Source of the DNA: a virus
Virus record (IMG/VR): IMGVR_UViG_3300012346_000689
Span: 15,318 to 79,317 of that record
Reading direction: 5' to 3' (one strand)
DNA: 64,000 nucleotides
Shown one piece after another: positions 2,848 to 60,487 of the stretch (the first letter of the stretch is position 1; each line of letters opens with the position of its first letter). Below the pieces are notes generated by a model. The model saw nothing but the letters and a program-made list of their open reading frames with translations, searched no databases and was not told the DNA's origin. The position numbers were made by a program, and so were the translations under genes.

Positions 2848-3948
2848 ATGAATAAATTAAGCTTGTCACAATTACTAGAGATTCAGGTACAGAAATACGG
2901 GTCAATGTCTGAGTTAGCCCGTCAGATCGGGATCAAGGTGGGCACGTTCCACAAGTACATAAGGGGTGAGTCGTTCCCTTCTAATGAGAACCTAGAGAAA
3001 ATCTCTGTGTTTTTAGATATTCCCACTAAATTAGATATAGGTTCTCCCGAAGCTTTGAGGATAGCCTTCTCTAAAGCACAGAGATTAGAGTCTGATTTGA
3101 ACCTAGAGAGGTTTGACTGGTCTGATTGGGGCGGCACAGCCTCAGCAACCCGCAGCAAATCAATAGGGGACGCGATTGCCTTATTTGAGAACGATTATTG
3201 GAATCGGAAGCAAAAGACTAAGAACCGTCAAGAGACTTACAAAATAGACTATACGCGCCCATTCTCCTTCTTGCCTGAAGAGTCTGAGTTGACCGGCTCG
3301 ATGTTGCTGAAGTGCTTATGTGAGTTTGACCCCGCTAGTCGTGACAGGTTGAGGGCATATACTGCCTATGGTTCTTTGGCTAGGTTTGCCGGGATAGAAC
3401 TACCACTTCATTGGAAGGACTATCGTGGTGAGTATAAGCCAAGTAAGAATCGTTACATCCCTAAAGATGCTGAGGTCATTCAAGTTAGAGAGAGTATTAA
3501 AAACCCTGAGTGGCAGTGGGTTTACAGTGTTCTTGCAGCTTACGGAATCAGACCGCACGAACTATTCTTTTTAGAATGGGATCTGTTCCCTAAACTGTAT
3601 ATATTTAAAGGAAAGACTCATGAAAGAATAGCCCGTCCGCTCTTAAAAGATTGGGCCATGGATTGGGCTTTAGACGACATAAAAATGCCCCCGTTTGAAG
3701 GCGTTGAGGAGGCAACACACAAACAACTAGGGGCTAAAGTCACTAAGGGATTTATTCGTCAGATAAAACAATGCTGGACTAATCCTATTGTGCCCTATTC
3801 CCTCCGCGATCGCTATGCCATACGGTGCGCCGAGCAGGGCATACGGGAATCGATGGCGGCTAAATTAATGGGACACTCAGTCAAGATCCATTGTGAGCAT
3901 TATCAGAAATGGATTGATGATATTGACATGGACAAGATTCTCGATTAG
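2848..3948 (+). CDS. int: tyrosine recombinase (phage integrase) with N-terminal XRE-type HTH
   Basis: YGIRPHELF (Arg), YSLRDRYAIR, MGHSVKIHCEHY (His/Tyr) motifs; FDWSDW motif of cyanobacterial integrases; N-terminal SELARQIGIKVGTFHKYIRGESFPS. Confidence 0.9.
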   Translation: MNKLSLSQLLEIQVQKYGSMSELARQIGIKVGTFHKYIRGESFPSNENLEKISVFLDIPTKLDIGSPEALRIAFSKAQRLESDLNLERFDWSDWGGTASATRSKSIGDAIALFENDYWNRKQKTKNRQETYKIDYTRPFSFLPEESELTGSMLLKCLCEFDPASRDRLRAYTAYGSLARFAGIELPLHWKDYRGEYKPSKNRYIPKDAEVIQVRESIKNPEWQWVYSVLAAYGIRPHELFFLEWDLFPKLYIFKGKTHERIARPLLKDWAMDWALDDIKMPPFEGVEEATHKQLGAKVTKGFIRQIKQCWTNPIVPYSLRDRYAIRCAEQGIRESMAAKLMGHSVKIHCEHYQKWIDDIDMDKILD

Positions 3949-4313: not shown

Positions 4314-4464
4314 GATAAAGGACTATCTGTTTATCGCCTTGCACGACCTCTAGTCCGTCGTTAGACTGAGAAACTCTAGCGATTTGATTCTGAATTGATT
4401 TTTTGAGTTTTGCTAATTCTTGTGTGTAAGTCATTGTCTTTCTGTCCACAATTTGGACGATCAT
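4276..4464 (-). CDS. hypothetical protein
   Basis: ORF in the operon, overlap-coupled. Confidence 0.4.
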   Translation of the reverse strand: MIVQIVDRKTMTYTQELAKLKKSIQNQIARVSQSNDGLEVVQGDKQIVLYRGSFTSRGSHRV

Positions 4465-4871
4465 GCAACTCTAACTATATGCTCATAGACTGTTATCTTA
4501 GCAGACTCTAAAATTCCGAGAGCTTCATTGTAGGGGACATAAATAGGGGTTTCCATTTGATAGGTAGCATCAGCTAGTCCATTTATCAAAGTCTCGACAA
4601 CCGTAGGGAAGACCCCGCTTTTGTCCCAATTCTTGAGATGGATCTCCCAATCTCGTCTCTTGGTGGTAGCGTAAAGCGCGTTCTTTGTTCTAATCTTAGG
4701 TTTGATAATCACCACTTCAATACCCGTCACAACCCAATTAGACGGCGGGTAGTCATACCCATAATCTAGGTGAGGTAATACAGCGATCGCGGGTAGAGTG
4801 CTATTGTACTTACCTAGATAATCGTCAAAGCAGTTAAGTATTAGGCTTTTAAGTTCGGTAGTGGTGATCAT
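4461..4871 (-). CDS. putative tail completion/terminator-like protein
   Basis: Size and pattern (LPAIAV...GIEVVI...WEIHLKNWD) resemble virion tail-completion proteins; weak call. Confidence 0.35.
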   Translation of the reverse strand: MITTTELKSLILNCFDDYLGKYNSTLPAIAVLPHLDYGYDYPPSNWVVTGIEVVIIKPKIRTKNALYATTKRRDWEIHLKNWDKSGVFPTVVETLINGLADATYQMETPIYVPYNEALGILESAKITVYEHIVRVA

Positions 4872-5386
4872 GAGTTTCTTGGTTGCACCTCACGGAAAAG
4901 TAGTTTGATTGTTCCCCATTTAATCCCCTGTTCTATTGTGGCACTAGGATTAGTGTAAAGGTCTGATGGGATGGATTGAATCCCTTTAGGCGACCAATCA
5001 AGGGAGATGATCTTCCCTGATCTAACTGAGTAGCCGTTGCTAATGTCAAGAGGTTCAACACTGATGGCATCGTACACAGTTACTAACGCCTCTGACTCGA
5101 CTAAAGCAGCAAGTGCGGCGTGGTGATAATGAGGATATAGAGTCTCTTCCCTAGAAGAGTCAAACTCAAATCCCCTGACCATCTTTCTCTTCTCCACATA
5201 GACAGAGTTAACCCCAAAAAATAGGGCGTTTACGTCCGCACTCCCATCAACCGAGTTGTTCTCTCTAGCGTATTGAGAAGGTTTACAACTAAACCGTAAG
5301 CGATCGCTCTCGACAAGGCTTAAATAACTCCCAAAGGAACTAACAATAGAAGGGGTTAATTGAATATCAAAATAAGAATAAAGCAT
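4868..5386 (-). CDS. hypothetical protein, possibly virion tail component
   Basis: 172-aa beta-rich ORF coupled to the preceding gene. Confidence 0.35.
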   Translation of the reverse strand: MLYSYFDIQLTPSIVSSFGSYLSLVESDRLRFSCKPSQYARENNSVDGSADVNALFFGVNSVYVEKRKMVRGFEFDSSREETLYPHYHHAALAALVESEALVTVYDAISVEPLDISNGYSVRSGKIISLDWSPKGIQSIPSDLYTNPSATIEQGIKWGTIKLLFREVQPRNS

Positions 5387-5458
5387 AGGTTTCTTTGTTA
5401 CTTAATTAATATTATATGCTTACTACAACGTATTAAGTAGGTGGTGGCTTGTTCGTGC

Positions 5459-5482
5459 TGTGACGTTTTGCGGATTGTCACA
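5459..5482 (+). promoter_or_regulatory. 24-bp palindrome TGTGA-N14-TCACA, copy 1 of 7
   Basis: TGTGACGTTTTGCGGATTGTCACA, 64 nt before the ATG at 5546. Confidence 0.65.
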
Positions 5483-5545
5483 ATCTTGCACACGGGAGCG
5501 GTGTTTAGGTAATAATAGTAATTGTAAAGAGACAAGGAGTAAATT

Positions 5546-5839
5546 ATGGTTGAACATATTACTTATGAAGAATTGACGCGGTTAATCGCGAATAATCAGC
5601 AAGTTAGACTTGTATTTGAACCAGTAGAATGTCAGTTGTATATTTATTTTTACAACAAAGAGCAAGGCGACCTATTAGAGTGTGAATTGTCTAAATTGAG
5701 AAAGCTTGGTTGTGGTTACTCGACACAAATGAGTGATCACTATATGTGGACTATTAGAGGTTATGAGAAAAGCGTTATCAATGCCATGATTGATTACATA
5801 AGAGGTGCTTTGGCAAATGCTGGCATCCCTTTTGTGTGA
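5546..5839 (+). CDS. hypothetical protein
   Basis: AAGGAG RBS, 97 aa. Confidence 0.6.
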   Translation: MVEHITYEELTRLIANNQQVRLVFEPVECQLYIYFYNKEQGDLLECELSKLRKLGCGYSTQMSDHYMWTIRGYEKSVINAMIDYIRGALANAGIPFV

Positions 5840-6048
5840 GCCTACCAAAAGTTAATCAACGAGCTAATCAAATATTAAGGAACAATTCAGAGATTGACAT
5901 TGATCAAGCCCTGAAGATCGTCAATAGTGGGAAACCATATTGCCCAAGATGCGGATCTTTTGAAGTGGTTATGCGCGGAAATGTACGTGGTAGGCAGCGT
6001 TATTCCTGTAAGAAGAAGGAATGCAAGAGAACATTCTATTTTGAATAA
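5836..6048 (+). CDS. small Zn-ribbon protein (IS1 InsA-like finger)
   Basis: CPRCGS...GRQRYSCKKKECKRTF. Confidence 0.65.
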   Translation: MSLPKVNQRANQILRNNSEIDIDQALKIVNSGKPYCPRCGSFEVVMRGNVRGRQRYSCKKKECKRTFYFE

Positions 6049-6113: not shown

Positions 6114-6809
6114 ATGGATGTCATAGAAAGAGAGGGATTTTTAGCTTATAGCACGCTACCTAGTTTTAATCGTAAAGTTGACAAGGCTAAAGCGATAATT
6201 AAAGAAGCGATCGCTATTGCTCCGTCTTATGTAGCGGTGAGTTGGGGAAAAGATTCGACGGTATTGCTGCATTTGTGCCAGCAAATAAAGCCTGATATAT
6301 TAGCTATTTACCATGGACATATAGAGCGAGATTTAATATCTAATTATAGTGAAACAATTGATAATTATTGTCAGAAATTTTCAACTAATTTATTAATGTT
6401 AGAAACAGACGACGCTGATGAAAATATGGCAGTAAAAGCCCCTTATCAGCAATATCCAGTATGTTTTTTAGGTATTAGAGGAGAGGAAAATAAAAGAAGA
6501 AAAATAGCTTTAACTAAGTATGGATTAATTCATCAATACCAATCAGGTAAATTGATAGGAAACTGGAGAATAGCCCCGATCGGGTGGTGGACGTGGCAAG
6601 ATGTGTGGAGTTATATCGTCGCTAATGACATTCCGTATTTAAAGGCATATGATGACTCGATAAGAGGTTGGGAATTGTCGAGGACGACTGATCACGTCTC
6701 CAAAAAATTAAACAGACCGTTACATTTTCAGAGATTAGAGGAGTTTAAGCAGACCAATCATGTATATTATGATTATCTAAGAACACATTACCCAGAGGTT
6801 TTTTTATGA
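6114..6809 (+). CDS. CysH/PAPS-reductase-like PP-loop protein (type IV-B-associated kind)
   Basis: YVAVSWGKDSTVLLHL PP-loop, FLGIRGEENKRR, PIGWWTWQDVWSYIVANDIPY; close to the csf operon. Confidence 0.85.
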   Translation: MDVIEREGFLAYSTLPSFNRKVDKAKAIIKEAIAIAPSYVAVSWGKDSTVLLHLCQQIKPDILAIYHGHIERDLISNYSETIDNYCQKFSTNLLMLETDDADENMAVKAPYQQYPVCFLGIRGEENKRRKIALTKYGLIHQYQSGKLIGNWRIAPIGWWTWQDVWSYIVANDIPYLKAYDDSIRGWELSRTTDHVSKKLNRPLHFQRLEEFKQTNHVYYDYLRTHYPEVFL

Positions 6810-7423
6810 CACTGACAGATACTAAATGGGATTTATTTTCAATGGTAAGAATCGGAAAAGTACAAGAGAATGATGGCAGAATTTGTCCCTTTTTAACTCA
6901 GGCAATTGAATCATTACCATCTACAACGCAAGAGTTTATGATGGTTATGAGAGATTTTTATGAGTCTCAAGAAGGTATTTTGTCAGAAACTAATCAGCTG
7001 TATGTTGACGCTTTAAAAGGAAATTTTGATGATGGTACGTTAGGCAAATCTTTACAGGATTTTTATAGTGAGCATACTTTCCCTATGATAGGAAAGTTAG
7101 GAGCTTTTCCTGCTAAGTATATTTTGATCCATGATGCTCATCACATCCTAATTAATGTAGAGACTGATGAACAGGGAGAAATTGATACGATCGCTTTTGA
7201 AGGTGCTTTAATTAACCCTTTGAGTAGTCGTGGAATTGTGCCATTATTATCTCAAATTCGAGCATTTGAGAATACTAATTTTGACGTTATTCGAGTCGCT
7301 AAAGCTTGGGAAGTAGGTTGTAATGTTCGAGGTGATTTATTAGAAACTTGGGATATTTTGGCAGATTTGAACAGTTCTATTTCTAGTTTACAGCAAAAGT
7401 ATAATATTACACCAGTTCTCTAA
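6806..7423 (+). CDS. Coq4-like protein (HDxxH-x11-E motif)
   Basis: GTLGKSLQDF...IHDAHHILINVETDEQGEIDTIAFE; ATGA-coupled to the cysH-like gene. Confidence 0.6.
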   Translation: MTLTDTKWDLFSMVRIGKVQENDGRICPFLTQAIESLPSTTQEFMMVMRDFYESQEGILSETNQLYVDALKGNFDDGTLGKSLQDFYSEHTFPMIGKLGAFPAKYILIHDAHHILINVETDEQGEIDTIAFEGALINPLSSRGIVPLLSQIRAFENTNFDVIRVAKAWEVGCNVRGDLLETWDILADLNSSISSLQQKYNITPVL

Positions 7424-7432
7424 TTAATAGTA

Positions 7433-7455
7433 AAAGCCACCGTAAAGGTGGCTTT
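7433..7455. terminator. bidirectional intrinsic terminator
   Basis: AAAGCCACC-GTAAA-GGTGGCTTT between convergent genes. Confidence 0.7.
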
Positions 7456-7460
7456 GTTGG

Positions 7461-7961
7461 TTATCTTTCTAAAATTAATTCCTTCTTGGTGAGAAAGTTT
7501 TCAACCTTTCCGACATGAGGATCAGATAAAATAGCTTTCGCATTTTCTACCCAAAAATCAGGGTTTTGATTGTTTCTGTACCGTTTTAATCCTCGCCATT
7601 TATGCTCATACATAGGGTAGCGACCAGCATCGGTTTCACCATACATTTTAATTAAATCTTGATAATCGTTAGGCTGATATTTCTGCCACAATTCTCCATT
7701 TGTTAAATTTGAATGACAGAGAATACTACACTCATCATCGTCTGTAGCATCATCATAAAAAAGATTGCCCGTATGATTTTGCAACCATTGCGCTAATTGT
7801 TCAATCATGATTTGTTCCTCAATTAATAAATCAATAGAATTAGATTGGTTTTTTTGTTGATCTAACCACTCGATAGAAGTAGCAGTTAGAGAGAAATTTT
7901 TTCGCCCTGCTTTAGTGCGTGGCTTGCCTAGATTGGCAAGCGATTTGGGGTTATACGGCAT
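7461..7961 (-). CDS. hypothetical protein, N-terminus like small ribbon-helix-helix DNA binders
   Basis: MPYNPKSLANL...NFSLTATSIEWLDQQKNQSNSIDLLIEE. Confidence 0.5.
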   Translation of the reverse strand: MPYNPKSLANLGKPRTKAGRKNFSLTATSIEWLDQQKNQSNSIDLLIEEQIMIEQLAQWLQNHTGNLFYDDATDDDECSILCHSNLTNGELWQKYQPNDYQDLIKMYGETDAGRYPMYEHKWRGLKRYRNNQNPDFWVENAKAILSDPHVGKVENFLTKKELILER

Positions 7962-8286
7962 TAGCTAAATACTTTTCTAAATCTTCTTTGAGAGACTCAA
8001 AAGATTGGTATGTTTGAGACCGTTTTGTTTTTCCTGTTTCAGTTGACAGTTCAATTGAACAAATAATATTTTTCTGCCAACGGAATTGGGATTCCCTTTC
8101 CCCAGTGTGAACAGCGTAATGAATAGAACTATAGTATCGATTTTTGTTGTATTGCCAGCGACTAATTGACACACTAGCGCGATTACATAATTCTAGGATT
8201 TCTGTATAAATTTTTCGAGATTCCCCTTGCAACCGACTTGGAATAATCAATTCGTAATTTTCCGATTCAACTAAAATAGTAGTCAT
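7951..8286 (-). CDS. hypothetical protein
   Basis: GAGG RBS, 111 aa. Confidence 0.55.
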   Translation of the reverse strand: MTTILVESENYELIIPSRLQGESRKIYTEILELCNRASVSISRWQYNKNRYYSSIHYAVHTGERESQFRWQKNIICSIELSTETGKTKRSQTYQSFESLKEDLEKYLANAV

Positions 8287-8348
8287 GGTTTTATCCTCTT
8301 TGTTTTACAATGTTTGATACACAGCCTAAAACTATACCTATAAAAAAT

Positions 8349-8900
8349 CTATAGAGCGTGTCTGAATAACCGGTATTGCCATTTGAAAGCAAGACTTTCG
8401 TTGTAGTATTCTAATTTTTCTGGTGAAGCATCGGAAAATAGAGAATACAGATCGATAAACTCATATAAATTAGGTAGGCTTAGATTTCCATATTTACGGT
8501 TTTCAATTAAATATTTAGCAGACGTACAAGTAATGATCGCATTTTTGATTAGGTTTGCCATTGTAATCCGTTTTGTGAGTTTTGGAAGTCTTTTTTGTTG
8601 GAAATCACTAAGGCAGTCCAACTTTACTAATTTATCGACATCTTTTTGTAATTTGGCAATAGTTTCAGATAATGTTTTTAACATTTCCGCTTTAATGTCT
8701 TCAGCCCATGCGATTTGTTTTTCAGAGCCTTCTAATTTAAGAGATTCTAAGTTTACCTGAAATCTTTCGATCGCAGATTCTAGCCTGTTAATTTGAAATA
8801 TAACGGTGACTATCACAGTACGACTAAAATATTTAGCATTAGCAATCATGTGGTTAAGTTTAGCGTTTAACTGTTGTAATCGTTTTTCTAATCGAGTCAT
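8349..8900 (-). CDS. hypothetical protein with GSEKQIAWAEDI motif (start reassigned to MTRLEK)
   Basis: GAGG RBS upstream; consensus-like TTGACA-18-TATAAT promoter on the minus strand at 8932-8961. Confidence 0.6.
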   Translation of the reverse strand: MTRLEKRLQQLNAKLNHMIANAKYFSRTVIVTVIFQINRLESAIERFQVNLESLKLEGSEKQIAWAEDIKAEMLKTLSETIAKLQKDVDKLVKLDCLSDFQQKRLPKLTKRITMANLIKNAIITCTSAKYLIENRKYGNLSLPNLYEFIDLYSLFSDASPEKLEYYNESLAFKWQYRLFRHAL

Positions 8901-8980
8901 GGGTTTAACCTCTCTACCTGTGTATATTCTAATTATACACACGATTAGAATCATTTGTCAACCCCTAAAATGAAAAAAAA

Positions 8981-9706
8981 ATGAAAAATTCTTGTATTCA
9001 AGTCACAGCAAAGCTTTCAAGCCATTTGTGTGTCAGTAATGATTGGACTCCGATGTTAGAGTCTATTCTGGAGTCAGTCTGGTTAGATGATCGTGGTTTA
9101 TCCGCGCGTAACCCGTTAAAAATAGAAGACACTATAGAGATCCCTATCCCATTGCGATCGCAGTCTGTCAAATCGACTAAATTCTATTCCGCTTCATCTC
9201 CTTTATATATAATTAAAAATGAGAGTGTGACTTACATTCGCTACCGGTGGGATTACCAGGAACATCATTGCGATTGGGGAAAAAAGAAAGCGCAGGTTTT
9301 TACTCAAGGATTTCATACTAAATACAAAAATACTCCATTACGTCTAGTCGAAACGGATCAAATAGACTGGTTTTGCGTAGGGGATAAAAATCAATTAATT
9401 GATATGTTGAACAAATGTACTCATGTTGGTGGTCATAGGGCTAGAGGTTATGGACAAGTCGATGAATGGATAGTTAACAAGATTGATGATGACTGGAGTT
9501 TGTGGCAGGGTGATCGATTAATGCGTCCGTTCCCCGTGCGATTGTTACCAGAAGGTATTGATGTTAGTACAGCAACTAAATTATTTTGGGGATGGAAAAC
9601 ACCAATTAGATGCCCAGAAAATAGAGAAGAATGTGTTATGCCATCTAACACTATTCATAAGGATAAAATAAATTTACACAATATTGATTATTTTGACGCT
9701 GTATAA
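8981..9706 (+). CDS. csf3: type IV CRISPR Cas5-family RAMP (Csf3), divergent paralogue A
   Basis: RWDYQEHHCDWGKKKA, IDWFCVGDK, Gly-rich loop HVGGHRARGYGQVDEW, LMRPFP; clearly paralogous to 12328-13005. Confidence 0.8.
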   Translation: MKNSCIQVTAKLSSHLCVSNDWTPMLESILESVWLDDRGLSARNPLKIEDTIEIPIPLRSQSVKSTKFYSASSPLYIIKNESVTYIRYRWDYQEHHCDWGKKKAQVFTQGFHTKYKNTPLRLVETDQIDWFCVGDKNQLIDMLNKCTHVGGHRARGYGQVDEWIVNKIDDDWSLWQGDRLMRPFPVRLLPEGIDVSTATKLFWGWKTPIRCPENREECVMPSNTIHKDKINLHNIDYFDAV

Positions 9707-9708
9707 TT

Positions 9709-10482
9709 ATGAATTACTGTTACATTTGCGGGGACAAAAATGCCTCAAAACCATTAGCTTTAAAAGACTCATTTACTGATCACAGTTTGTGCCAAGCTCC
9801 TCAGTCAAAAAATCTATGCGATCGCTGTTACGATTGCCTAGACGGAAAATATAAACAGTGCTGGTATCAAAAAGCTGATGGCAAAGTGAGTAAATTGTGG
9901 GGAAGAAATTGGTCTTGGTTGGTATCTGAAAAGGAGTCTTATCCACAATTTCAAGAGGGGAAAGACGGGTTATTAGAAGTGTTCAATTTACCAACTAGAG
10001 AACTAACTAGAAAGTGGATTGTAAACCCTCCTGCGCCACCTTTTACAATTTGTATAGCGGTGTCAGGGCAAAGGCATACCTATCCTTTTAGTCAGGTTAG
10101 TTATTCTCAAAAATTAATACCAATTACTTTCGAGAAAACTCTTATCAACTGGCGAAAAGATGATCAGTTTTACCTTAATCTCTTTGAAGAGTTTATGAGT
10201 TTAGGATTCTCAAAAACTGAGATAGTATCGGGTGATTATAGCCCAAATAAACTTACCTTGATCGATGTTGATGATTTCTTAGCTAAAGATAAGTATTTAG
10301 CTATTCTTAGAAATACCTCATTGATGGATTTATTGAGTTATATAGCTATAAAACCAGATGTGTTACCTGAAACTCAAGAGATTAATCCTGAACCGATAAA
10401 ACAACCTGCTAAAGTAGAGGTTGAAGACAAAAAGGAATCAGCTTTTACTATTGAATCAAATGGACAATTATCACTTTTTTAA
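9709..10482 (+). CDS. csf1: type IV Cas8-like large subunit (Csf1)
   Basis: CYICG...DSFTDH...LCDRC Zn ribbon, WIVNPPAPPFTICIAVSGQRHTYP, SQKLIPITFE. Confidence 0.8.
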   Translation: MNYCYICGDKNASKPLALKDSFTDHSLCQAPQSKNLCDRCYDCLDGKYKQCWYQKADGKVSKLWGRNWSWLVSEKESYPQFQEGKDGLLEVFNLPTRELTRKWIVNPPAPPFTICIAVSGQRHTYPFSQVSYSQKLIPITFEKTLINWRKDDQFYLNLFEEFMSLGFSKTEIVSGDYSPNKLTLIDVDDFLAKDKYLAILRNTSLMDLLSYIAIKPDVLPETQEINPEPIKQPAKVEVEDKKESAFTIESNGQLSLF

Positions 10483-10484
10483 TT

Positions 10485-10991
10485 ATGTACGGAATTAAAT
10501 CAACTGACCCTAAAATATCGTTAGCAACTGCTCTAACTTATTGGTGTTTTAAATGCCGTAAGCGTAACCCTCCAGTTGTTAAACCTGTAGATACTTGGAA
10601 TTATCTAAAAAGCAGCATTGCTAACGCTGCGACTCCATCAAAAAACCTTAACGATTACATAGAAAACCTCGGTAAAAAGTTACTTGTGCCATCTTTAAGA
10701 CCGGTAGAATGGACTCGAATTATTAGACCTAAGATTACTATTCAAAGAGTAGTTAAAGAAGATGGTAGAATCCTTGAACTATATGAGGATCAAGAAAATG
10801 AAGAGCTACTTTTCTATTCATGGGAAGACATTCTTATAGAGTTGGCTCCTCTAGGAATAACTGAACGACATATCCTCAAGACTTGCCTTAAGTACCCGTC
10901 TGTTATCTGTGCTTTTGCTAGAGTACGTTATGAAGATGACAAAGCGATCGGGCAAGAAATTGAGTTAGAATCTGAAACAATTGACGTTTAA
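10485..10991 (+). CDS. putative Cas11 small subunit of type IV-B
   Basis: Helical 168-aa protein between csf1 and csf2 (WNYLKSSIANAA...LNDYIENLGKKL); mainly a positional call. Confidence 0.6.
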   Translation: MYGIKSTDPKISLATALTYWCFKCRKRNPPVVKPVDTWNYLKSSIANAATPSKNLNDYIENLGKKLLVPSLRPVEWTRIIRPKITIQRVVKEDGRILELYEDQENEELLFYSWEDILIELAPLGITERHILKTCLKYPSVICAFARVRYEDDKAIGQEIELESETIDV

Positions 10992-11009
10992 AATTAAAAG
11001 AGGTATTGT

Positions 11010-12224
11010 ATGTTTGAAAATTATGATGTAAATGACCGTCATCAAATAAGATTTGATGTAGTAATTGAAACCCTGTCACCATTAAGCCATATTGGGGAAA
11101 GTATAGGTAATCAAAGCAATTTAAAAACTTTAGATATTACCGACCTGACAGGTGAATCTAATCCTGTTTTTGTGTACTCTTCTAATAGTTTAAGAAACGG
11201 TTTGTTCAGGCGAAAAGGTACGTTATCAATGTTAGATGACCTTGATTTAACTGTTAATCCTACAACTCACCAAACGTTATTTGCGGGTGGTTTTATTGAA
11301 GGTGGCACAGCAGTAGATTTAGAATTAGATGCCAAAGTTCGGAAGTTTTTGCCATCAATATCGGTGCTAGGAACAGCTAAACCACCAGGGCTATTTAATA
11401 GTAATAATAGTCAAATGATTGGTGGCAGAATTAATATAGGAGGTGCTTATTTAGTATGTTTAGAAACTGCTGAATACATCTATAAAAGTTTTCCCCCTTT
11501 ATTGCCTTATTCAGTGCTTTCGTTTGTAAAAGAATTGGTAGAAGCAAAGCAATCTTTATTTAATGATAGAGTGAATGCTTGGCTTTATCAAAAACAAATT
11601 TCTGGTATTCAAGAAAAGGTAAGAAATTATCAAGAGTTATTGTTAGAATATATGCCACTATTAGAAGATAAATTAAGGAGTTATACGCAGTGGCTAACCT
11701 ATAATCAAAAGGTCAGAATGGATAGTTTAAAAGACCCACATTTAGCACAATATATTAACAGTAATCATCAAATAGGAGGGCAACAAACAAGCTTACTGAG
11801 TGAATCAAAGCCAGATAAAAAGAAGGGTAAATCTTCTGATGAAAAGCACTCTCAACAGATGATTATGGGCGACTGGCTGTTACAGCCGGGTGCGACTTTA
11901 TATTCTCGTTGGGATGGAAATATCACTGATGTTGAAGAGGGAATGCTCGCAGCCGCACTACTAAAATTCGCTGAATCACCGTACTTAGGAGGTAAATGTG
12001 GAACAGGGTGCGGACTTGTTTCTTTTGATATTTATTATCGATCGGGTCAAGAAGCGGGCAAGTGGCTGACTATAGCTCCAGACTCTCAAATATTGTCAGA
12101 AAGATGTCAGGAAAACTATCAAAGATATATGCAACATTTAGAGCAATTTAAAGGATATATTGCTTCAGCAAAACAGGATATAACTAAGTTTCTAAGTGAA
12201 CGTTCTGGGAGTCGCACCCAGTAG
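11010..12224 (+). CDS. csf2: type IV Cas7 backbone RAMP (Csf2)
   Basis: IETLSPLSHIGES, PVFVYSSNSLRNGLFRR, LFAGG, FLPSISVLG, IGGRINIG, YLGGKCGTGCGLV Gly loop. Confidence 0.88.
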   Translation: MFENYDVNDRHQIRFDVVIETLSPLSHIGESIGNQSNLKTLDITDLTGESNPVFVYSSNSLRNGLFRRKGTLSMLDDLDLTVNPTTHQTLFAGGFIEGGTAVDLELDAKVRKFLPSISVLGTAKPPGLFNSNNSQMIGGRINIGGAYLVCLETAEYIYKSFPPLLPYSVLSFVKELVEAKQSLFNDRVNAWLYQKQISGIQEKVRNYQELLLEYMPLLEDKLRSYTQWLTYNQKVRMDSLKDPHLAQYINSNHQIGGQQTSLLSESKPDKKKGKSSDEKHSQQMIMGDWLLQPGATLYSRWDGNITDVEEGMLAAALLKFAESPYLGGKCGTGCGLVSFDIYYRSGQEAGKWLTIAPDSQILSERCQENYQRYMQHLEQFKGYIASAKQDITKFLSERSGSRTQ

Positions 12225-12306
12225 CCGAGTTCAGTTCCTTTTTTCATGATAATTCGGGACTCGGCAAGTGTACAAACTCTTCTGAATACTGTTTCAGCCA
12301 ACGTTC
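12198..12306. ncRNA. candidate tRNA-like cloverleaf RNA between csf2 and the second csf3
   Basis: 7-bp closing stem GAACGTT/AACGTTC; hairpins CTGGG/CCCAG (loop reads TGCGACT on the minus strand, T-arm geometry), GCCGAGTTC/GGACTCGGC and CTGAA/TTCAG. Confidence 0.5.
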
Positions 12307-12327
12307 TCTATCAATATATCATAAATA

Positions 12328-13005
12328 ATGGATAACTTACAAGTAACGGCTTATCTATCAACTCCACTCTCTACTGACCTATTTAGCCCTAATCTAGACG
12401 CGCTATTGTATCGATTATGGCTAGAAGAAAAAGGTCTTTATAATCCTAACGTAAAACGGACTGAGGATGTTATAAAAGCAGATGTTCCTATCAAATTGAT
12501 AGAAGAAAAAGGGTATCAATATTACTCTGTATCTGCGCCTCATTTTATCATCCTAAACGAACAAAACACCCGCTATCGGAGGCGTTGGGATTATCAAGAG
12601 CATCATTGTGACTTTGGCAAAAAGAAGGCTAAAGTCGATACGCAACAAGGCAATACTAAAAGCTGCGATCTGCCACTGAGACTGATAGAAACTAATAGGA
12701 TAGACTGGTTTTGTAACGGGGACAAATCAGAAATTGATCGTCTATTGTCTTCTGTAACAAATATCGGTAAAAAAATCTCTCAAGGTTTTGGGCAAGTTTT
12801 TCGTTGGCAGTCTCAAGTGGTAGAGGATGATTTTAGCGTCTGGCAAGATAAGCGATTAATGCGGATTTTGCCAGCAGAACTCATCCCTGAACATTTAAAA
12901 GAAAGGTATCCTCTGCGAGCGTGGACGTATCATCCCCCGTACTTTTTGCCTGAAAACAAAGCACTCTGCGCTATGCCTGCCAATACAAGAAGCGCATTAA
13001 ACTAA
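12328..13005 (+). CDS. csf3: type IV Cas5-family RAMP (Csf3), canonical paralogue B
   Basis: MDNLQVTAYLSTPL...PNLDALLY, YSVSAP, DTQQGNTKSCDLP, IDWFCNGD, NIGKKISQGFGQVFRW, YHPPYF. Confidence 0.85.
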   Translation: MDNLQVTAYLSTPLSTDLFSPNLDALLYRLWLEEKGLYNPNVKRTEDVIKADVPIKLIEEKGYQYYSVSAPHFIILNEQNTRYRRRWDYQEHHCDFGKKKAKVDTQQGNTKSCDLPLRLIETNRIDWFCNGDKSEIDRLLSSVTNIGKKISQGFGQVFRWQSQVVEDDFSVWQDKRLMRILPAELIPEHLKERYPLRAWTYHPPYFLPENKALCAMPANTRSALN

Positions 13006-13010
13006 CAGAA

Positions 13011-13034
13011 AAAACGGCTAAACTTAGCCGTTTT
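13011..13034. terminator. bidirectional terminator closing the csf operon
   Basis: AAAACGGCTA-AACT-TAGCCGTTTT. Confidence 0.7.
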
Positions 13035-13049
13035 AAAGTGTGATCGCTG

Positions 13050-13382
13050 TTAACTACTTCTTTTGGCTATTAAAGCGGATAAAAGAGCCTTTATCCTGCC
13101 TCTCTCTTCTGCAAATGCAGCAAAGCTCCCCTTTAGCTCATCCCAAAAATAGTCATAGAATAATGCCCCCAATTGGTTTATTATGCTGATTCGCTCAGGG
13201 GTTGTTGATCGGGGTACTTGAAATAACAACCCTGCCACAAAAGTTTTATCTTGTAGCATACTCGTATTTGAACAGTTCAAAACTTCGCGACTGAAGTTAG
13301 TCCAGTCGGATTCTGTATAATAGCTTTGAACAAACAGTTCTGCGAATCTTAATAGGTGAGATTTTTGTTTGACTTGATCCAT
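13050..13382 (-). CDS. hypothetical protein
   Basis: GGAG RBS, 110 aa. Confidence 0.55.
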   Translation of the reverse strand: MDQVKQKSHLLRFAELFVQSYYTESDWTNFSREVLNCSNTSMLQDKTFVAGLLFQVPRSTTPERISIINQLGALFYDYFWDELKGSFAAFAEERGRIKALLSALIAKRSS

Positions 13383-13446
13383 TTTTCTCCTTTTAATATA
13401 TTAAGACAGTGTTAGGGGTTCTCGTTAGTTAGAACCCCTAAAGTAT

Positions 13447-13704
13447 TTATTCTTCTTCAATATGAGAGAAGACCGCTAGATACTCGTTACTAGGATCAGC
13501 GAAAACATTTTTTAAAACGTTTTTTATCAGGTCAGAATTACGATGAAAAACATCGTAGCCTCCATGATATTTTTCCGCGTTTTCTTGTGTTTCAAAGCTA
13601 TATATATCCCATCCGTGGGCATATTCCGCCACCGGAGTGCATTTACCTACAGTAGTTAAAACTAGTTCTTGCCCTTGTTGTGTAATCGCTCTAATAGAAA
13701 TCAT
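13447..13704 (-). CDS. hypothetical protein
   Basis: GAGG RBS, downstream of palindrome copy 2. Confidence 0.55.
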   Translation of the reverse strand: MISIRAITQQGQELVLTTVGKCTPVAEYAHGWDIYSFETQENAEKYHGGYDVFHRNSDLIKNVLKNVFADPSNEYLAVFSHIEEE

Positions 13705-13777
13705 AATTACCTCTTTCTTGTTACTTTGTTTTCTATACTTCCAATATAATCAATTCTAATTATCCCGTGCGTTCAAT

Positions 13778-13801
13778 TGTGCCACTTTCTCAACTGTCAC
13801 A
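13778..13801 (-). promoter_or_regulatory. 24-bp palindrome, copy 2 of 7
   Basis: TGTGCCACTTTCTCAACTGTCACA. Confidence 0.65.
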
Positions 13802-14015
13802 ATGGCGTACCTATATGCTGCTTGTGTGGGTTACATTAGTAATATGTGCCATTTATCCATTGTAATAACGAGATTTTTGTTATTATGAGTTAAAAACTTG
13901 CGGACAGGTTAGAGCGATCGCAAGTTTTTTTTATTTTAAGCACCGCGATCACAATCAAGTCAAAACTTTTAATATAAAATAGTGTATATGATTATTATAG
14001 TTTATCTATTTAATT

Positions 14016-14231
14016 ATGAGTAAATTAGAGAGGATGAATTTGCTATTAAAAGAATTATTGACGGCGAGATGGGATGATTATAATGACGATATGTATATAG
14101 ATTACAGACCTTTTGACTGTTACTATATCTGTTGGGAATGGGATAGATATATAGGGGATGAAGGAGAATTTATAGGACGTAATTATAAAGAAGCAAGAGA
14201 AAGTTTATTTTATTACTATAATGACGATTAG
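14016..14231 (+). CDS. hypothetical acidic, Tyr-rich protein
   Basis: 71-aa ORF. Confidence 0.5.
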   Translation: MSKLERMNLLLKELLTARWDDYNDDMYIDYRPFDCYYICWEWDRYIGDEGEFIGRNYKEARESLFYYYNDD

Positions 14232-14325
14232 TGTGATAATATAAAGGTAGGTAGTAAACCTACCTAAAATAAACGTCAAAACACCTTTAAAAGGTCTGTT
14301 ATCAACTTAATAGTAAACCATTACA

Positions 14326-15264
14326 ATGTCAATTAGTACAATGAAACACATAGTTATGTTTTCTGGTGGAGTTGCGTCGTGGTGTGCTGCTAAATTAGTA
14401 AGCGATCGCTACGGGATAGACAATTTAATATTACTTTTTGCTGATACTTTAATAGAGGATCAGGACTGTTATCGATTTATTTTAGAGGGTGCGGCTAACA
14501 TATTCAATATGAGACTTAACCCTAGATATATAGAAAAAGGGTTTTTAAATATTCCTGAGATAGGGGATATAAACCGTAATACTGTTTTATGGAGAATAGC
14601 AAACGAGTCTAGAGTAATTAGGGCTAATTTAGATAATGGTTTAGTCTGGTTGCAAGAAGGAAATGATGTTTGGGATGTGTTTTTTGAAGACAAATTCCTA
14701 AATCATTATGTTAGTAATTGCTCCAAGAAACTTAAACAAAAACCATGTAAAGGCTGGTTAAATTGGGGATTAGAGTCACAAGAGCCAACGGTAGCAAAAT
14801 ACTTAAATAACCCTGAAAATGTGACAATTTATTTAGGTATAGATATGAACGAGATTGAAAGAGCAGAGAAGATAATAGAAGGATATAAACCGTTTAAGGT
14901 AGATTTTCCTTTGCTTTGGGATAATTGGTTAGATAGAAAAGGGCAATTTGACCTATTAGAATCAGTTAATATTCAGCCACCGAGACTTTATAAATATGGT
15001 TTTTCTCATAACAATTGTGGAGGTTTTTGTGTTAAGGCGGGTAAGAAACAATTTGCACAATTACTAGATACTTTTCCTGATAGATATAATTACCACGCTC
15101 AACAAGAAAAAGCTTTCCAAAAGCATATAAAACAAGAGATTACTATATTAAGAGAGCAACATAATAACGAGAAAACAAGGCTTAGTTTGGCAGAGTTTAA
15201 AGAGCGTCCTAAGCAGTTGTCATTGTTTGATGCGATGGGTGGCTGCGGGTGTTTTATTGACTAA
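14326..15264 (+). CDS. phage PAPS-reductase-like PP-loop protein with Cys clusters
   Basis: HIVMFSGGVASW, LFADTLIEDQD, CSKKLK, YLGID, GFSHNNCGGFCVKAG, C-terminal GGCGCF. Confidence 0.75.
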   Translation: MSISTMKHIVMFSGGVASWCAAKLVSDRYGIDNLILLFADTLIEDQDCYRFILEGAANIFNMRLNPRYIEKGFLNIPEIGDINRNTVLWRIANESRVIRANLDNGLVWLQEGNDVWDVFFEDKFLNHYVSNCSKKLKQKPCKGWLNWGLESQEPTVAKYLNNPENVTIYLGIDMNEIERAEKIIEGYKPFKVDFPLLWDNWLDRKGQFDLLESVNIQPPRLYKYGFSHNNCGGFCVKAGKKQFAQLLDTFPDRYNYHAQQEKAFQKHIKQEITILREQHNNEKTRLSLAEFKERPKQLSLFDAMGGCGCFID

Positions 15265-15336
15265 TCCAAGATGCAGGAGTTGAACCTGCCTAGTACAAAT
15301 TATGAGTTTGTTGCCTAACCGATCGGCCAATCTTGG
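15265..15336 (-). tRNA. tRNA with CAT anticodon, Ile2 (lysidine) type
   Basis: CCAAGAT/ATCTTGG acceptor, D-arm GGCCGATCGGTTAGGC, ACAAA-CTCATAA-TTTGT, GCAGG-TTCAACT-CCTGC, discriminator A; resembles cyanobacterial tRNA-Ile2, but Met cannot be excluded. Confidence 0.85.
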
Positions 15337-50300: not shown

Positions 50301-53300
50301 TTCAGATAGCGGTATCTGGTACTCCATTAAGGGGTAGTAAAGCAGACGATTTCTTTGAATCCCTGACTATTGCTATTAAGGGATTGGGGATGAGTTCTGA
50401 AGAGGCAGGACGGGTATTCCTAGCGTTTAATCAGATCATCCAGAAGGGTCGGTTAAGCGCTGAGGAAATCAGGCAGCAGTTGGCAGAGACGGGATTTCCT
50501 GTTATCGAGTTTGCCAAAGCATTAAATATGAGCGTGACAGAATTTAACGAGTTGTTAGATCGGGGAGCATTTACTGCTGAGGAGGTGTTCCCTAAATTAG
50601 CTAAACAGTTGCGCAAGGATTTTGGAGACGCAGCTAAACAAGCAACAGGCGACTTCCTTAGTGGGATGATACGAGTCCAAAATGCCGTGTTCTCCATGAG
50701 TAAAGCCATAGGGGATATGTTTGGGAGTGTGTTCGCAGGAATTTCTCACGGGATGGCCTCTGCCCTTGAGTTTGTGGTTGAGAAGATGAAATTTATTGTT
50801 ACAGTAGGGTCAACCTTCTTGATCGGGTTTGGAGTTCAAGCATTCATAGGATTGCGTTCTGCTTTGTCTGGAATGCTTTCTGGAAGCGGTGCATTGATGG
50901 AAATGTTCACGTCTAGGCAGGCTCTTTTAGCTAAAGCTATTACCCACGGATTGCAGATGATGAGACCATTCTTGGTAGTGGCAATAGCCAGCCTTTTAGA
51001 TGAAGTATTTGGGACTAAATACAGTGTCTTTGAGAATCTGGGCGCATTCTTTAAGAACCTGATTATCAACCTTGTTTATATGGTTGACAATATCATGTCC
51101 GCATTGAAAAGCAACCAAGGGTTAATAGGATTCGCTAATGGGTTTGTTTTGTTGGGCAAAGCGATCGCCTCTGCTTTTCAATCTATTCCGTCGGGTGTTG
51201 TGGAATTAACCGCTCTGATGTTTATCCTGATTCAGATTAATATGCTATTGAAGTTGTATATTATAGATGCGGTCAGGACTTTTACTGCCACGCTATGGAA
51301 ACTAATCTCTGCTATGTGGTCAGCAGTGGCATCAGGTAAGGGGCTGAGTGCAATTTGGGGTACTTTAGCTGGTGGGATGAAGTTGGCTATGGTAGGAGCA
51401 CACGCTTTACTGGCTGTATTTGTCTTTCTATTGGCCAAAAGCGACTTCCTTAACGATTTATGGCAGCCACTTAAAGATACTACCAAAGACCTAACCTTTG
51501 CTATTCAAGGGATGAAGAACGCTTTAGACCAAGTGGGTGCTAGTGGCGAGGGCGCAGCAAAACGGATCGGTGGTCTGAAGTCGAAGGGGGTTGAATTGAA
51601 CCTGAAGTATGCTTTAGGGTTTGGAGGAGACAGTGTTAAATCAGATGATGCCGCGATCGCCCACAGGAACAAAATATATGACCGGTTGAAGGAACAGGGT
51701 CGGCATATATCTACTGTTAAGGCAGTGTACGACAAGGCTTTTGTAAAAGAGTTAGACGACTTGGGACTGAGTGAGTCCATAGGTGCTTATCGTGCTAGTT
51801 TTATGACGATAGCAGAGGAGAACCTCTATAAAAATACCAAAAAACAGAAAGAGATGGCTGATACGCTAACTAAGGATCTAGGTGCTATGGGTTTATCTCC
51901 TAATTCTAAGATTTCCTTCGAGCCACGGACGGTCTTATCTGCTCAGTCCCAGGACTATTTAAGAGTGCTGTTCAAGAATGAGGGTGTGAAGGTTGATTCT
52001 GATGGCGTTACTGCGGAGGTAGATTCACTCAAGGCTGTTGCAGCTATTGATAAAGCAATCAATGAGAAGAGGAAAGAACGCCAAGATTTAGGACTTATTG
52101 ACACGGCTGAAGCTAAGAAACAAATAGGCGAGATAGATATTGAGATTCAGAAACTACAAGAGGAAAGGGTTCTGGTTGTCAAGCCCGTGGTAGATATTGT
52201 TAACTATTTAGGTGATAGTAAAAAGGCTGTTGAGTCTTATATTGATACTATTAATCAGAGTGCTGATTATTCTCCCGCCGTCAAACGTCGCCTGATTGAG
52301 ACCGTACAGCCAGCACTTGATGGCATCGCCCAAGCATCTAAAATATTAGAAGAACGGGGTTACATTGATGCCGTTGACAACATTAGCTCTGTGTGGAAAG
52401 ACGTAACCAATAGCTTAACTGATGCGACAAAAGCATACGAAAAGTGGCAACGGCTCAATGAAATTTCTACTACGGGAATTAAGGCAGAGTTGGTGGGTAA
52501 AAACCTACCTGAGCCAGAGAAGTCTCGGCAGTTAGGGGAGTTGGAACTTAAGGATTTGTCATCACAACTATCTAAACTTGAGGCTATGCAAACCAAGAGA
52601 AGGGAGTCCCTCGCCCAACTGCTTAGTATTGAAGGGTCATTACAAAGTGAGAAAAAACAAGAGCTTGAGGAACTCAGAAAAGAGACTGCTCAGGGTGATA
52701 TTGAACTAGCTAAGAAACGGTTAGAAGTGGCTGAAAAGTCCGCTTCTGAACGATTAGCGATAGAAGAGTACACCCTGCAAAAGATAAGAGAACTTAATGA
52801 CGTTACCAATGCTCAGATAACTATCGCTTCTCAGGGCATGATTGAACGTATCCTCAAGAGTCAATCCCTTGCCCAATTGAGTCCTGAGCGTGCGGACTTC
52901 TTGAAGGGGCAAGCCCAAAGAGACGCTACAAGGAAGCAGATTGTATCTGAAATAAACACTAATAAGCGACTCTTGGCAGAGATACGGGCTACCTCTCAGA
53001 AGCGATTGGCTGAAGCTAGTGAGCCGGGTAAATTGTCCATGCCTGAATATAGTGCAGTCGTTCGCTACGAGAGTAAACGGATTGCGGATGCTAAGGCTGC
53101 CCTTGCTACGGCTAAAGTTAAGCTTCTTGACGAGGAACTCGCGGCAAGGAAAGAGGTCTCTTCTGAACGATTGCGAATTAACGAGTACAACCTCTATAGA
53201 GGACAAGAGACAATAGGACTGACCTCTAAGGAAAATGCTAACCTTGCTGAGATGCAGATAATCTTGACCGCGATCGCTAAAACTCAGAAGGATTTGAAAG

Positions 53301-59548: not shown

Positions 59549-60487
59549 ATGGACAATCAAATCTTTTTATCTGACTGCTTTGATATTATGCGCAATCTTC
59601 CTGATAATAGTATTGATGCGATTATAACTGATCCGCCGTACCTTTATTTAAAGCATAAATTAGACGCTGATTATGATGAGCAAATGTTTATAGATGAGGT
59701 TTTCCGTATATTAAAAAAAGATAGTATATTAGGCTTTTTTGGCAGAGGTCAAAGCTTTTATAAATTGAACCATTTAGCATCTCAAAAAGGGTTTAAATTT
59801 AAAGAAGAGATTGTATGGGACAAGGTGAGAATATCAAGTCCAGTGCTTAGAATAGGAAGATGTCATGAAACATTTGTTATATATGGTAAAGGAAATAAAA
59901 CCATTAATAAGATAAAAATAGATAGGATTGATAATGTTGCTGCTATTGATAGCCATAGATTGATAAATGATATAAAAAGAATCTTATCTACTATCAATTC
60001 AATTAAAACAACAGAGGATTTAATTGCTTTTAAAAATAATAAGTATAATATTCGAGAACCTCAACTAAAGCACTGCTTAACTGTTCATGCTGATTTGCCT
60101 AACTTTGACCGTGGATACAGTGCTTACAAAGCGTTAACAGAAGGATGTTTAATGCCTTCAGTAGTTAGATTTTCTACTGATCATTATAACTATCAACATC
60201 CTACCCAAAAACCTCTAGAATTGATGAAAAGATTGATAGAACTATTAACACCTGAAAACGGGTTAGTATTAGACCCATTTGCCGGCTCATTTACAACCGC
60301 GATCGCTTGTCTAGAAACGGGTAGAAGGTACATTTGTATTGAGAAAGAAGAGGAGTATTTCAACATAGGAAAAGAGAGGATTAAAAGATGGCACAACGAG
60401 CAAAGAGATAGGACGGGAACTTATGAATTACCACCTGATATTGAGAGAATAAAAGAGGATAAATACGGGCAATTAAGCTTGTTTTAA
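59549..60487 (+). CDS. DNA N4/N6 methyltransferase (beta class)
   Basis: IDAIITDPPY, HPTQKPLELMKRLI, VLDPFAGSFTT. Confidence 0.92.
   Translation: MDNQIFLSDCFDIMRNLPDNSIDAIITDPPYLYLKHKLDADYDEQMFIDEVFRILKKDSILGFFGRGQSFYKLNHLASQKGFKFKEEIVWDKVRISSPVLRIGRCHETFVIYGKGNKTINKIKIDRIDNVAAIDSHRLINDIKRILSTINSIKTTEDLIAFKNNKYNIREPQLKHCLTVHADLPNFDRGYSAYKALTEGCLMPSVVRFSTDHYNYQHPTQKPLELMKRLIELLTPENGLVLDPFAGSFTTAIACLETGRRYICIEKEEEYFNIGKERIKRWHNEQRDRTGTYELPPDIERIKEDKYGQLSLF

Follow-up and report, generated by a model that had tools for sequence, protein, structure and literature searches.

A type IV csf operon in a cyanophage genome

The sequence analyzed here (the window) is a 64,000-nucleotide stretch of DNA comprising bases 15318-79317 of the 84,261-bp IMG/VR virus record IMGVR_UViG_3300012346_000689, the whole of which is designated G000; window coordinates count from window base 1 and G000 coordinates are positions in the full record. 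An open reading frame (ORF) map of the window contains a plus-strand operon of type IV CRISPR effector genes, csf3-csf1-cas11-csf2-csf3, at 8981-13005, with intergenic gaps of 2, 2, 18 and 103 nt.

8981-9706, plus strand: csf3a, Cas5 paralogue 1 (PADLOC Csf3_0_IV, 5.1e-39, match over full length)
9709-10482, plus strand: csf1, Cas8-like large subunit (PADLOC Csf1_0_IV, 3.8e-25)
10485-10991, plus strand: cas11, small subunit (PADLOC Cas11_2_IV, 5.3e-8)
11010-12224, plus strand: csf2, Cas7 backbone (PADLOC Csf2_0_IV, 2e-40)
12328-13005, plus strand: csf3b, Cas5 paralogue 2 (PADLOC Csf3_0_IV, 1.9e-44; NCBIfam cas5_csf3, 7.8e-16, under cut-off)
13011-13034, unstranded: GC-rich palindrome forming a hairpin, flanked by T runs on either side and located between convergent genes (consensus scan only)

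An initial annotation of this DNA, made from the sequence alone, had placed all five genes correctly and had proposed profile typing of their products; all five match type IV Csf or Cas11 profiles of PADLOC, and each gene is full-length against its profile. The NCBIfam type IV equivalogs (TIGR03114/5/6) give the same gene names, but at 26-58 bits against cut-offs of 130-140, and Pfam is nearly blind to the operon proteins. Judged by these scores the module is a divergent branch outside the curated NCBIfam type IV family. The hairpin at 13011-13034 is likely a bidirectional terminator, in agreement with the earlier description of an operon with its own terminator. A perfect TTGACA-18-TATAAT promoter match is present on the minus strand at 8932-8961, within the annotated start of a 201-aa minus-strand ORF; the real start of this ORF is probably further downstream, which would leave space for a csf promoter. 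Csf2, Csf3 (here in two copies), Csf1, Cas11, a cysH-like gene and the lack of an array, adaptation module, DinG-like helicase and effector nuclease are all as described for type IV-B, while the lack of Cas6 that also belongs to that description does not hold for G000. The module is almost certainly a type IV-B-type Csf module.

The identification of G000 as a tailed cyanophage is well supported. The genome has a 55-bp direct terminal repeat and encodes a gpA-type large terminase, a portal, a major capsid protein and a 2498-aa tape-measure-sized ORF, together with three DNA methyltransferases and a KilAC antirepressor. The cyanobacterial palindrome HIP1 (GCGATCGC) occurs in 65 copies against 0.5 expected, relatives of Csf2 carry names from Pseudanabaena and Cyanobacteriota metagenome-assembled genomes (MAGs), and a Dolichospermum MAG was the sole match among 185,579 species genomes. 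The first description as a temperate cyanophage stands as regards the host group, and the temperate lifestyle is plausible. An integrase-like gene is present; its product, a 366-aa protein encoded at window 2848-3948, combines an HTH_3 domain at the N terminus with a main part that matches the integrase family phrog_1 (1.5e-8), with no Pfam integrase match.

The CasCysH partner and a coupled Coq4-like gene

An alignment-based scan of IMG/VR with Csf2 gave 55 viral loci, and at least 279 Csf2 homologues of approximately 390 aa were found. The five-gene operon recurs in the 55 IMG/VR loci and in further assemblies. Mapping of the window proteins on the 55 loci revealed a canonical order, cas11-csf2-csf3-cysH-csf1, with genes translationally coupled through overlapping start and stop codons; in 53 of these loci csf2 is immediately preceded by a gene of the cas11 family. 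In the window, cysH forms a separate unit upstream of the csf operon.

6114-6809, plus strand: CasCysH (type A), a PP-loop protein of the ATP-pyrophosphatase fold (Pfam PAPS_reduct, 5.7e-13)
6806-7423, plus strand: Coq4-like metal-binding protein, 205 aa, overlapping cysH by 4 nt
7433-7455, plus strand: terminator-like hairpin closing the cysH-coq4L unit (consensus scan only)

The window protein is 42-51% identical to the products of cysH genes within the csf operons of L006-L019, L025, L027, L038, L049 and L064. Such type A genes are found in 17 loci, where they follow csf3 and precede either csf1 or cas6, and type B genes occupy the same position in 29 loci at 22-29% identity. The PP-loop S43-W-G-K-D-S48 (SWGKDS) is invariant in the 17 type A members, which also share conserved Arg, Asp and His residues, and among which no conserved Cys was found. 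This pattern agrees with the published account of CasCysH as a PP-loop protein without the reductase cysteine (PMC8175902). The gene at 6114-6809, recognized from the outset as a CysH-like partner, is assigned as the genuine CasCysH of the system because in relatives its orthologues sit within the csf operons, where they are often paired with the Coq4-like gene as well.

The Coq4-like gene directly follows type A cysH in eight other loci, and the motif HDxxH-x11-E (H109, D110, H113, E125) is invariant in its family. A profile of this family matched the Nostoc Coq4 homologue Alr8543 (6e12) with an E-value of 0.0012, and matches to Pfam Coq4 (PF05019) ranged from 0.033 to 6e-4, below gathering. 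In the ESM Atlas the protein groups with Coq4 clusters of viruses and cyanobacteria (score 0.91). The slot after cysH is occupied by a Coq4-like gene in nine loci and by a cupin in six, both being metal-binding folds. No paper connecting Coq4-like proteins with type IV systems was found in the literature searched.

A rearranged module in three transcription units

The nearest relatives, L059, L062 and L064 (Csf2 55-60% identical), have the canonical order and one csf3. Since even these keep that order with a single csf3, the order in the window is a rearrangement of it, in which the cysH-coq4L pair stands upstream, separated from the csf genes by three unrelated genes on the minus strand (7461-8954), and the other genes are rotated. 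The phage-borne module thus comprises three transcription units, namely cysH with the Coq4-like gene, csf3a-csf1-cas11-csf2-csf3b, and a Cas6 gene located beyond the window. A compound locus, L036:1423-8626, has tandem copies of csf3 (three), cysH (two) and csf1 (two), and loci of this type may be the kind of intermediate that gives rise to rotated orders such as that of the window. A sub-clade without recognizable csf1 carries a conserved trio of genes directly upstream of cas11 (L055:7364-9440 and 14 other loci), encoding a ~75-aa protein, an AAA_28 ATPase of ~250 aa and a ~114-aa protein.

A split and rearranged module, array-less and scoring under the NCBIfam cut-offs, could be read as a decaying remnant without function. 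This appears very unlikely, as all genes are full-length against profile, the catalytic and metal motifs are invariant across relatives, and the family of ~17 clusters at 50% identity shows conserved synteny.

Csf2 carries a clade-defining helical insertion

The AlphaFold (AF2) model of Csf2 had a predicted local distance difference test score (pLDDT) of 76 and a predicted template modelling score (pTM) of 0.74. By Foldseek its best match was the type IV-A3 Csf2 8rc2 (5.8e-13), followed by type IV-B 7jhy (2.1e-5) and Csm3 (5e-5); profile matches in the PDB were likewise to 7jhy and 8rc2. Identity to the solved Csf2 structures is only 14-16%. The central helical segment that the initial annotation had described as an apparent insertion is evident in the model.

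Csf2 residues about 160-230 (nt about 11487-11699), plus strand: helical hairpin insertion (AF2 helices 167-193 and 200-221, pLDDT > 90)

In a HMMER search of the whole library, shorter Csf2-like proteins (280-350 aa) aligned in two stretches, omitting approximately residues 160-220, and the long form made up the ~17 clusters at 50% identity. Because all other Csf2-like proteins skip this region, the hairpin (167-221) is a clade-defining insertion; it is real, as first described, and is not particular to this phage.

A clamp-type tail on Csf1

Csf1 has an N-terminal CxxC...CxxC and a low-complexity C-terminal extension of ~40 residues ending in GQLSLF (codons 10465-10479). This ending matches QL[SD]LF, the consensus of sliding-clamp-binding motifs. 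Endings of the QLSLF type were present exactly in 13 and nearly in 5 of 44 Csf1 proteins, as compared with 6 of 1336 other ORFs. A GQLSLF ending was present in only 3 of 241 G000 ORFs, these being Csf1 and two DNA methyltransferases, and in no further ORF of 50 aa or more.

Window 59549-60487: N6/N4 DNA methyltransferase (N6_N4_Mtase) with GQLSLF end
G000 4779-5981 (L058), minus strand: D12-class adenine methyltransferase with GQLSLF end

That the same tag is common to Csf1 and two DNA-acting enzymes argues for the Csf complex being brought to replicating DNA. The nearest relatives are without the tail, which is thus gained and lost.

A cognate Cas6 lies outside the window

A Cas6 family (Pfam PF09559, 2.5e-33) was found within or beside the operon in 20 of the 55 loci, and a search of the full genome identified a member in G000.

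G000 80442-81008 (L057:4443-5009), minus strand: Cas6, 188 aa (PF09559, 132.8 bits)

The gene is located 1.1 kb past the 3' end of the window and, counted across the terminal repeat, ~27 kb away from the operon, so the absence of cas6 initially reported holds for the window only. The three proteins most similar to its product (58, 57 and 43% identity) are each encoded inside a csf operon, for example cas11-csf2-csf3-cas6-cysH-csf1 in L086, and overall a Cas6 gene is embedded in at least 23 csf operons. By this relationship the G000 protein is the cognate Cas6 of the csf lineage, moved to another place in the genome. Cyanobacterial Cas6 proteins of the Cmx6 type are more distantly related, among them Laspinema, Gloeothece and Snowella proteins 40-44% identical to the phage Cas6. 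Among eight near-complete relatives, four have a Cas6. The genes surrounding Cas6 in G000 form a minus-strand cluster of unknown genes. The gap following cas6 in relatives was considered as a candidate repeat and was rejected, as it consists of a terminator and then a promoter.

No array and no internal guide source

Scans of the whole 84-kb genome, extending beyond the 64-kb window, agreed with the first report of an array-less locus lacking cas1, cas2 and dinG. No CRISPR array was detected by Tandem Repeats Finder, by exact k-mers or by a degenerate repeat scan (spacings of 50-100, with 25 or more of 32 positions matching), the last giving zero matches on G000. No Cas1, Cas2 or DEAD_2 (DinG-like) domain was found in the genome, RecD not having been searched for specifically, and no Cas12 homologue was found in G000. 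The initial annotation had regarded a cognate array plus cas6 elsewhere in the genome as telling against its reading, and of this pair only the cas6 is present. The best repeat-like site, at window 4338-4374 (Hamming 23/37), was attributed to chance and does not fold into a structure (z +0.66). The 25-nt sequence repeated directly at a period of 45 nt at G000 13210-13280 (L058) is an in-frame coding repeat of a 293-aa minus-strand ORF and not an array.

Real arrays are present in G009, G012 and L038-L045. They were dropped as proof of guidance of Csf by CRISPR RNA (crRNA), since all adjoin miniature Cas12 genes (PADLOC Cas12u2/Cas12f, E down to 3e-166) and cannot be credited to Csf. The arrays beside miniature Cas12 genes in related phages have 5 to 28 repeats.

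L040:14188-16056: miniature Cas12 gene
L040:19086-20849, minus strand: miniature Cas12 gene
L069:17781-19184, minus strand: miniature Cas12 gene
L084:86-1024: miniature Cas12 gene
L040:16342-19136: array beside miniature Cas12
L069:17193-17512: array beside miniature Cas12
L080:6614-6914: array beside miniature Cas12

The check for neighbouring Cas12 genes covered the arrays of G009, G012 and L038-L045. L049 (G004), a complete 95-kb phage, has a seven-repeat array (L049:16612-17087) ~850 bp after csf1 and is without a PF09559 Cas6. In L040 two Cas12 genes and two arrays are present and the repeats differ. Two spacers from the arrays of relatives matched, in IMG/VR, only their own array or that of the same species, and 80 spacers searched by local BLAST gave self matches only. 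In G013, units of ~100 bp stand in three copies at 6207-6440, and the set recurs in inverted orientation 46 kb further on, at 52036-52269 (L074, L076); these repeats are not CRISPR-like. As the genome contains no array, any guide RNA must come in trans, either from host CRISPR transcripts or as a non-CRISPR RNA.

These observations bear on the proposal that no guide is used at all, and that Csf2 and Cas11 form a filament coating RNA without sequence preference, with CasCysH acting on RNA or a small molecule and the distal Cas6 being unrelated. In support of this, the sole solved IV-B ribonucleoprotein (RNP) contains heterogeneous RNA (PMC7937560), the genome has no guide source, half of the complete relatives lack a Cas6, and in G000 the Cas6 gene is 27 kb from the operon. 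However, Cas5 and Cas8-like subunits, which are the class 1 readers of handle and target, are retained and even duplicated, Cas6 is embedded in the csf operons noted above, and the clamp tail points towards DNA rather than bulk RNA. Guide-independent coating of RNA is regarded as rather improbable.

Duplicated Csf3 and the borrowing of host guides

The two Csf3 proteins are 43% identical and both are full-length to profile. In a tree including the nearest relatives they fall together in one supported seven-member clade (99/95), which indicates a lineage-specific duplication followed by fast divergence and not import from another lineage. Extra csf3 copies occur in 3 of ~60 loci, the others being L003 and L036. 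The doubled Cas5 put forward initially as a distinctive feature is thus real, and is a lineage-specific duplication of restricted occurrence. A structured RNA within the operon had been put forward as well.

12198-12307, plus strand: structured 110-nt element covering the csf2 stop and the one long gap of the operon (minimum free energy -33.2 kcal/mol, z -2.9)

Its multi-branch fold is more stable than that of shuffled sequences, with 2 of 200 shuffles folding as well, and it is conserved nowhere, as there is no Rfam match and no similar sequence in the ~60 related loci or elsewhere in the genome. Candidate explanations for the element are the scar of an insertion, an attenuator and an RNA gene.

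In a more specific form of the initial proposal that host crRNAs are sequestered or borrowed, the phage Cas6 and Csf complex would capture host CRISPR transcripts, the two Cas5 reading two different host repeat handles, and thereby either starve host effectors, as an anti-CRISPR made of Cas proteins, or turn host spacers on competing phages. Borrowing of host crRNAs is possible, and more plausible given the Cas6. G000, G008 and G013 each have a Cas6 and neither an array nor Cas12, the Cas6 is of the cyanobacterial Cmx6 type, both csf3 genes are intact and diverged, and the taking of crRNAs from co-resident systems by IV-B has been speculated upon previously (PMC7038947). Set against this, 40% identity of Cas6 is uninformative on repeat specificity, IV-B correlates negatively with several CRISPR types (PMC7038947), and the rarity of doubled Csf3 means that reading of two handles cannot be general to the clade. 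Hijacking of host crRNAs is given only a low probability. A more elaborate version, in which Csf complexes riding the clamp with borrowed, Cas6-cut host CRISPR RNA, and with two Cas5 for two repeat families, would direct CasCysH and the Coq4-like protein to modify nucleic acid at chosen sites in a replication-coupled manner, seems distinctly unlikely.

The downstream PP-loop gene

The initial annotation had the module bracketed by two PP-loop enzymes, the second a PAPS-reductase-like gene downstream of the operon. This gene does exist.

14326-15264: PP-loop (SGGVAS) gene (phrog_424 'PAPS reductase', 2.8e-42; weak SspD match, 1.4e-10)

Both genes encode PP-loop motifs and each lies at most 2 kb from the operon, which speaks for a dual-enzyme system in which they serve the module together. 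However, two minus-strand genes and a terminator stand between the operon and the downstream gene, no counterpart of which was found in the 55 IMG/VR loci or the nearest relatives, and its scores class it as a member of the common phage family phrog_424, outside the system. The bracketing arrangement is not upheld, and joint action of the two enzymes is considered extremely improbable. A tRNA-Met (CAT; 54 bits) at window 15265-15336 on the minus strand abuts the stop codon of the phrog_424 gene.

Discussion

The reading that we favour, tentatively, is of a nuclease-free RNP fed by Cas6 and tethered to the clamp, with CasCysH chemistry or blocking as its output. Csf2, Cas11, Csf3 and Csf1 would form a nuclease-free Cascade/Csm-like RNP, assembly of a Csm-like RNP having been shown only for the IV-B proteins of Mycobacterium (PMC7937560). 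In this phage lineage the RNP would be loaded with RNA cut by the cognate Cas6, and the GQLSLF tail of Csf1 would tether it to the host DnaN sliding clamp and hence to replicating DNA. The output, without cleavage, may then be blocking, or an ATP-dependent adenylyl transfer carried out by CasCysH together with the Coq4-like metal protein. Biologically, the module probably serves in conflicts against the host or rival mobile elements.

Several observations weigh against this reading. The only solved IV-B complex bound heterogeneous RNA in which Cas6-made crRNAs were not enriched (PMC7937560), and no RNA partner, whether array, solitary repeat or conserved non-coding element, was seen in the G000 genome. 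The putative clamp motif is a five-residue match to the consensus, and 26 of 44 Csf1 proteins, including those of the nearest relatives, are without the motif. As half of the near-complete relatives also lack a Cas6, neither Cas6 nor the clamp tail is obligatory for the clade. The NCBIfam type IV scores are far under their cut-offs. Where Mycobacterium Csf2 has its putative catalytic residue, Asp42, the aligned residue in the clade is not Asp and falls within a GNQSN loop, which leaves no basis for arguing that target RNA is cleaved.

Among the closest described systems is the IV-B of the Mycobacterium sp. JS623 megaplasmid (7jhy; PMC7937560, PMC8175902), which has the same five protein families, is borne on a mobile element, lacks an array, adaptation genes, helicase and nuclease, and includes a cysH-like gene whose product retains the PP-loop but not the reductase cysteine. 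The phage module differs in being phage-borne with a cyanobacterial host and in its rotated and split gene order, and adds the Csf2 helical insertion of ~60-80 aa, a second Csf3, a genomic Cas6, the cysH-coupled Coq4-like gene and a Csf1 tail of predicted clamp-binding type. Cas6 in IV-B has been reported as a rare exception, in 12 instances (PMC7038947), whereas in the present clade it is common, is of the Cmx6 type (PF09559) and, in G000, has moved off the operon. The atypical IV-B of Fuxivirus, a Bathyarchaeia virus, is also virus-encoded with a CysH-like gene beside Csf3, and a counter-defence or inter-element role has been proposed for it (PMC10848311); it differs in belonging to an archaeal virus and in having a mini-array in the locus, the cyanophage having a Cas6 and no array. 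Type IV-A (Csf with Cas6/Csf5 and DinG), which supplies the best structural match of Csf2, carries out nuclease-free CRISPRi-like interference (PMC11519345). Its Cas6-dependent, nuclease-free logic is by analogy a plausible model for the phage module, although the latter has no DinG or array, includes Cas11 and CysH, and has a Cas6 of another family. Among PP-loop enzymes of DNA-modification defence (DndC, SspD, BrxP), CasCysH has weak matches to BrxP (4e-8) and DndC (9e-5), far under the family cut-offs, and it differs from them in having no conserved cysteine and no sulfur-transfer partners. Action on DNA would fit the tail that Csf1 has in common with the two methyltransferases.

Earlier publications cover the occurrence of IV-B in phage and prophage genomes, the rare IV-B loci that include Cas6, and a virus-encoded IV-B accompanied by a mini-array (PMC7038947, PMC10848311, PMC11656645). 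In the literature searched no paper was found describing this cyanophage clade, its Csf2 insertion, the Coq4-like/cupin slot or the clamp tail; what this genome adds is the split architecture, the Cas5 duplication and the GQLSLF tag common to Csf1 and the methyltransferases. Type IV-B is the one common CRISPR-Cas subtype without an established function (PMC12669027, PMC11656645), a question still open in late 2025 (PMC12669027). The clade offers natural experiments missing from the plasmid systems studied so far, with Cas6 and the Csf1 clamp tail each present or absent, a slot exchangeable between Coq4-like and cupin genes, and Cas5 duplicated in this phage. This variation offers direct tests of the identity of the bound RNA, of contact between the complex and the replisome, and of the product of CasCysH. 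Were it true that phages capture host crRNAs with Cas proteins, this would also answer why CRISPR inhibitors seem not to include recruited Cas proteins (PMC11656645).

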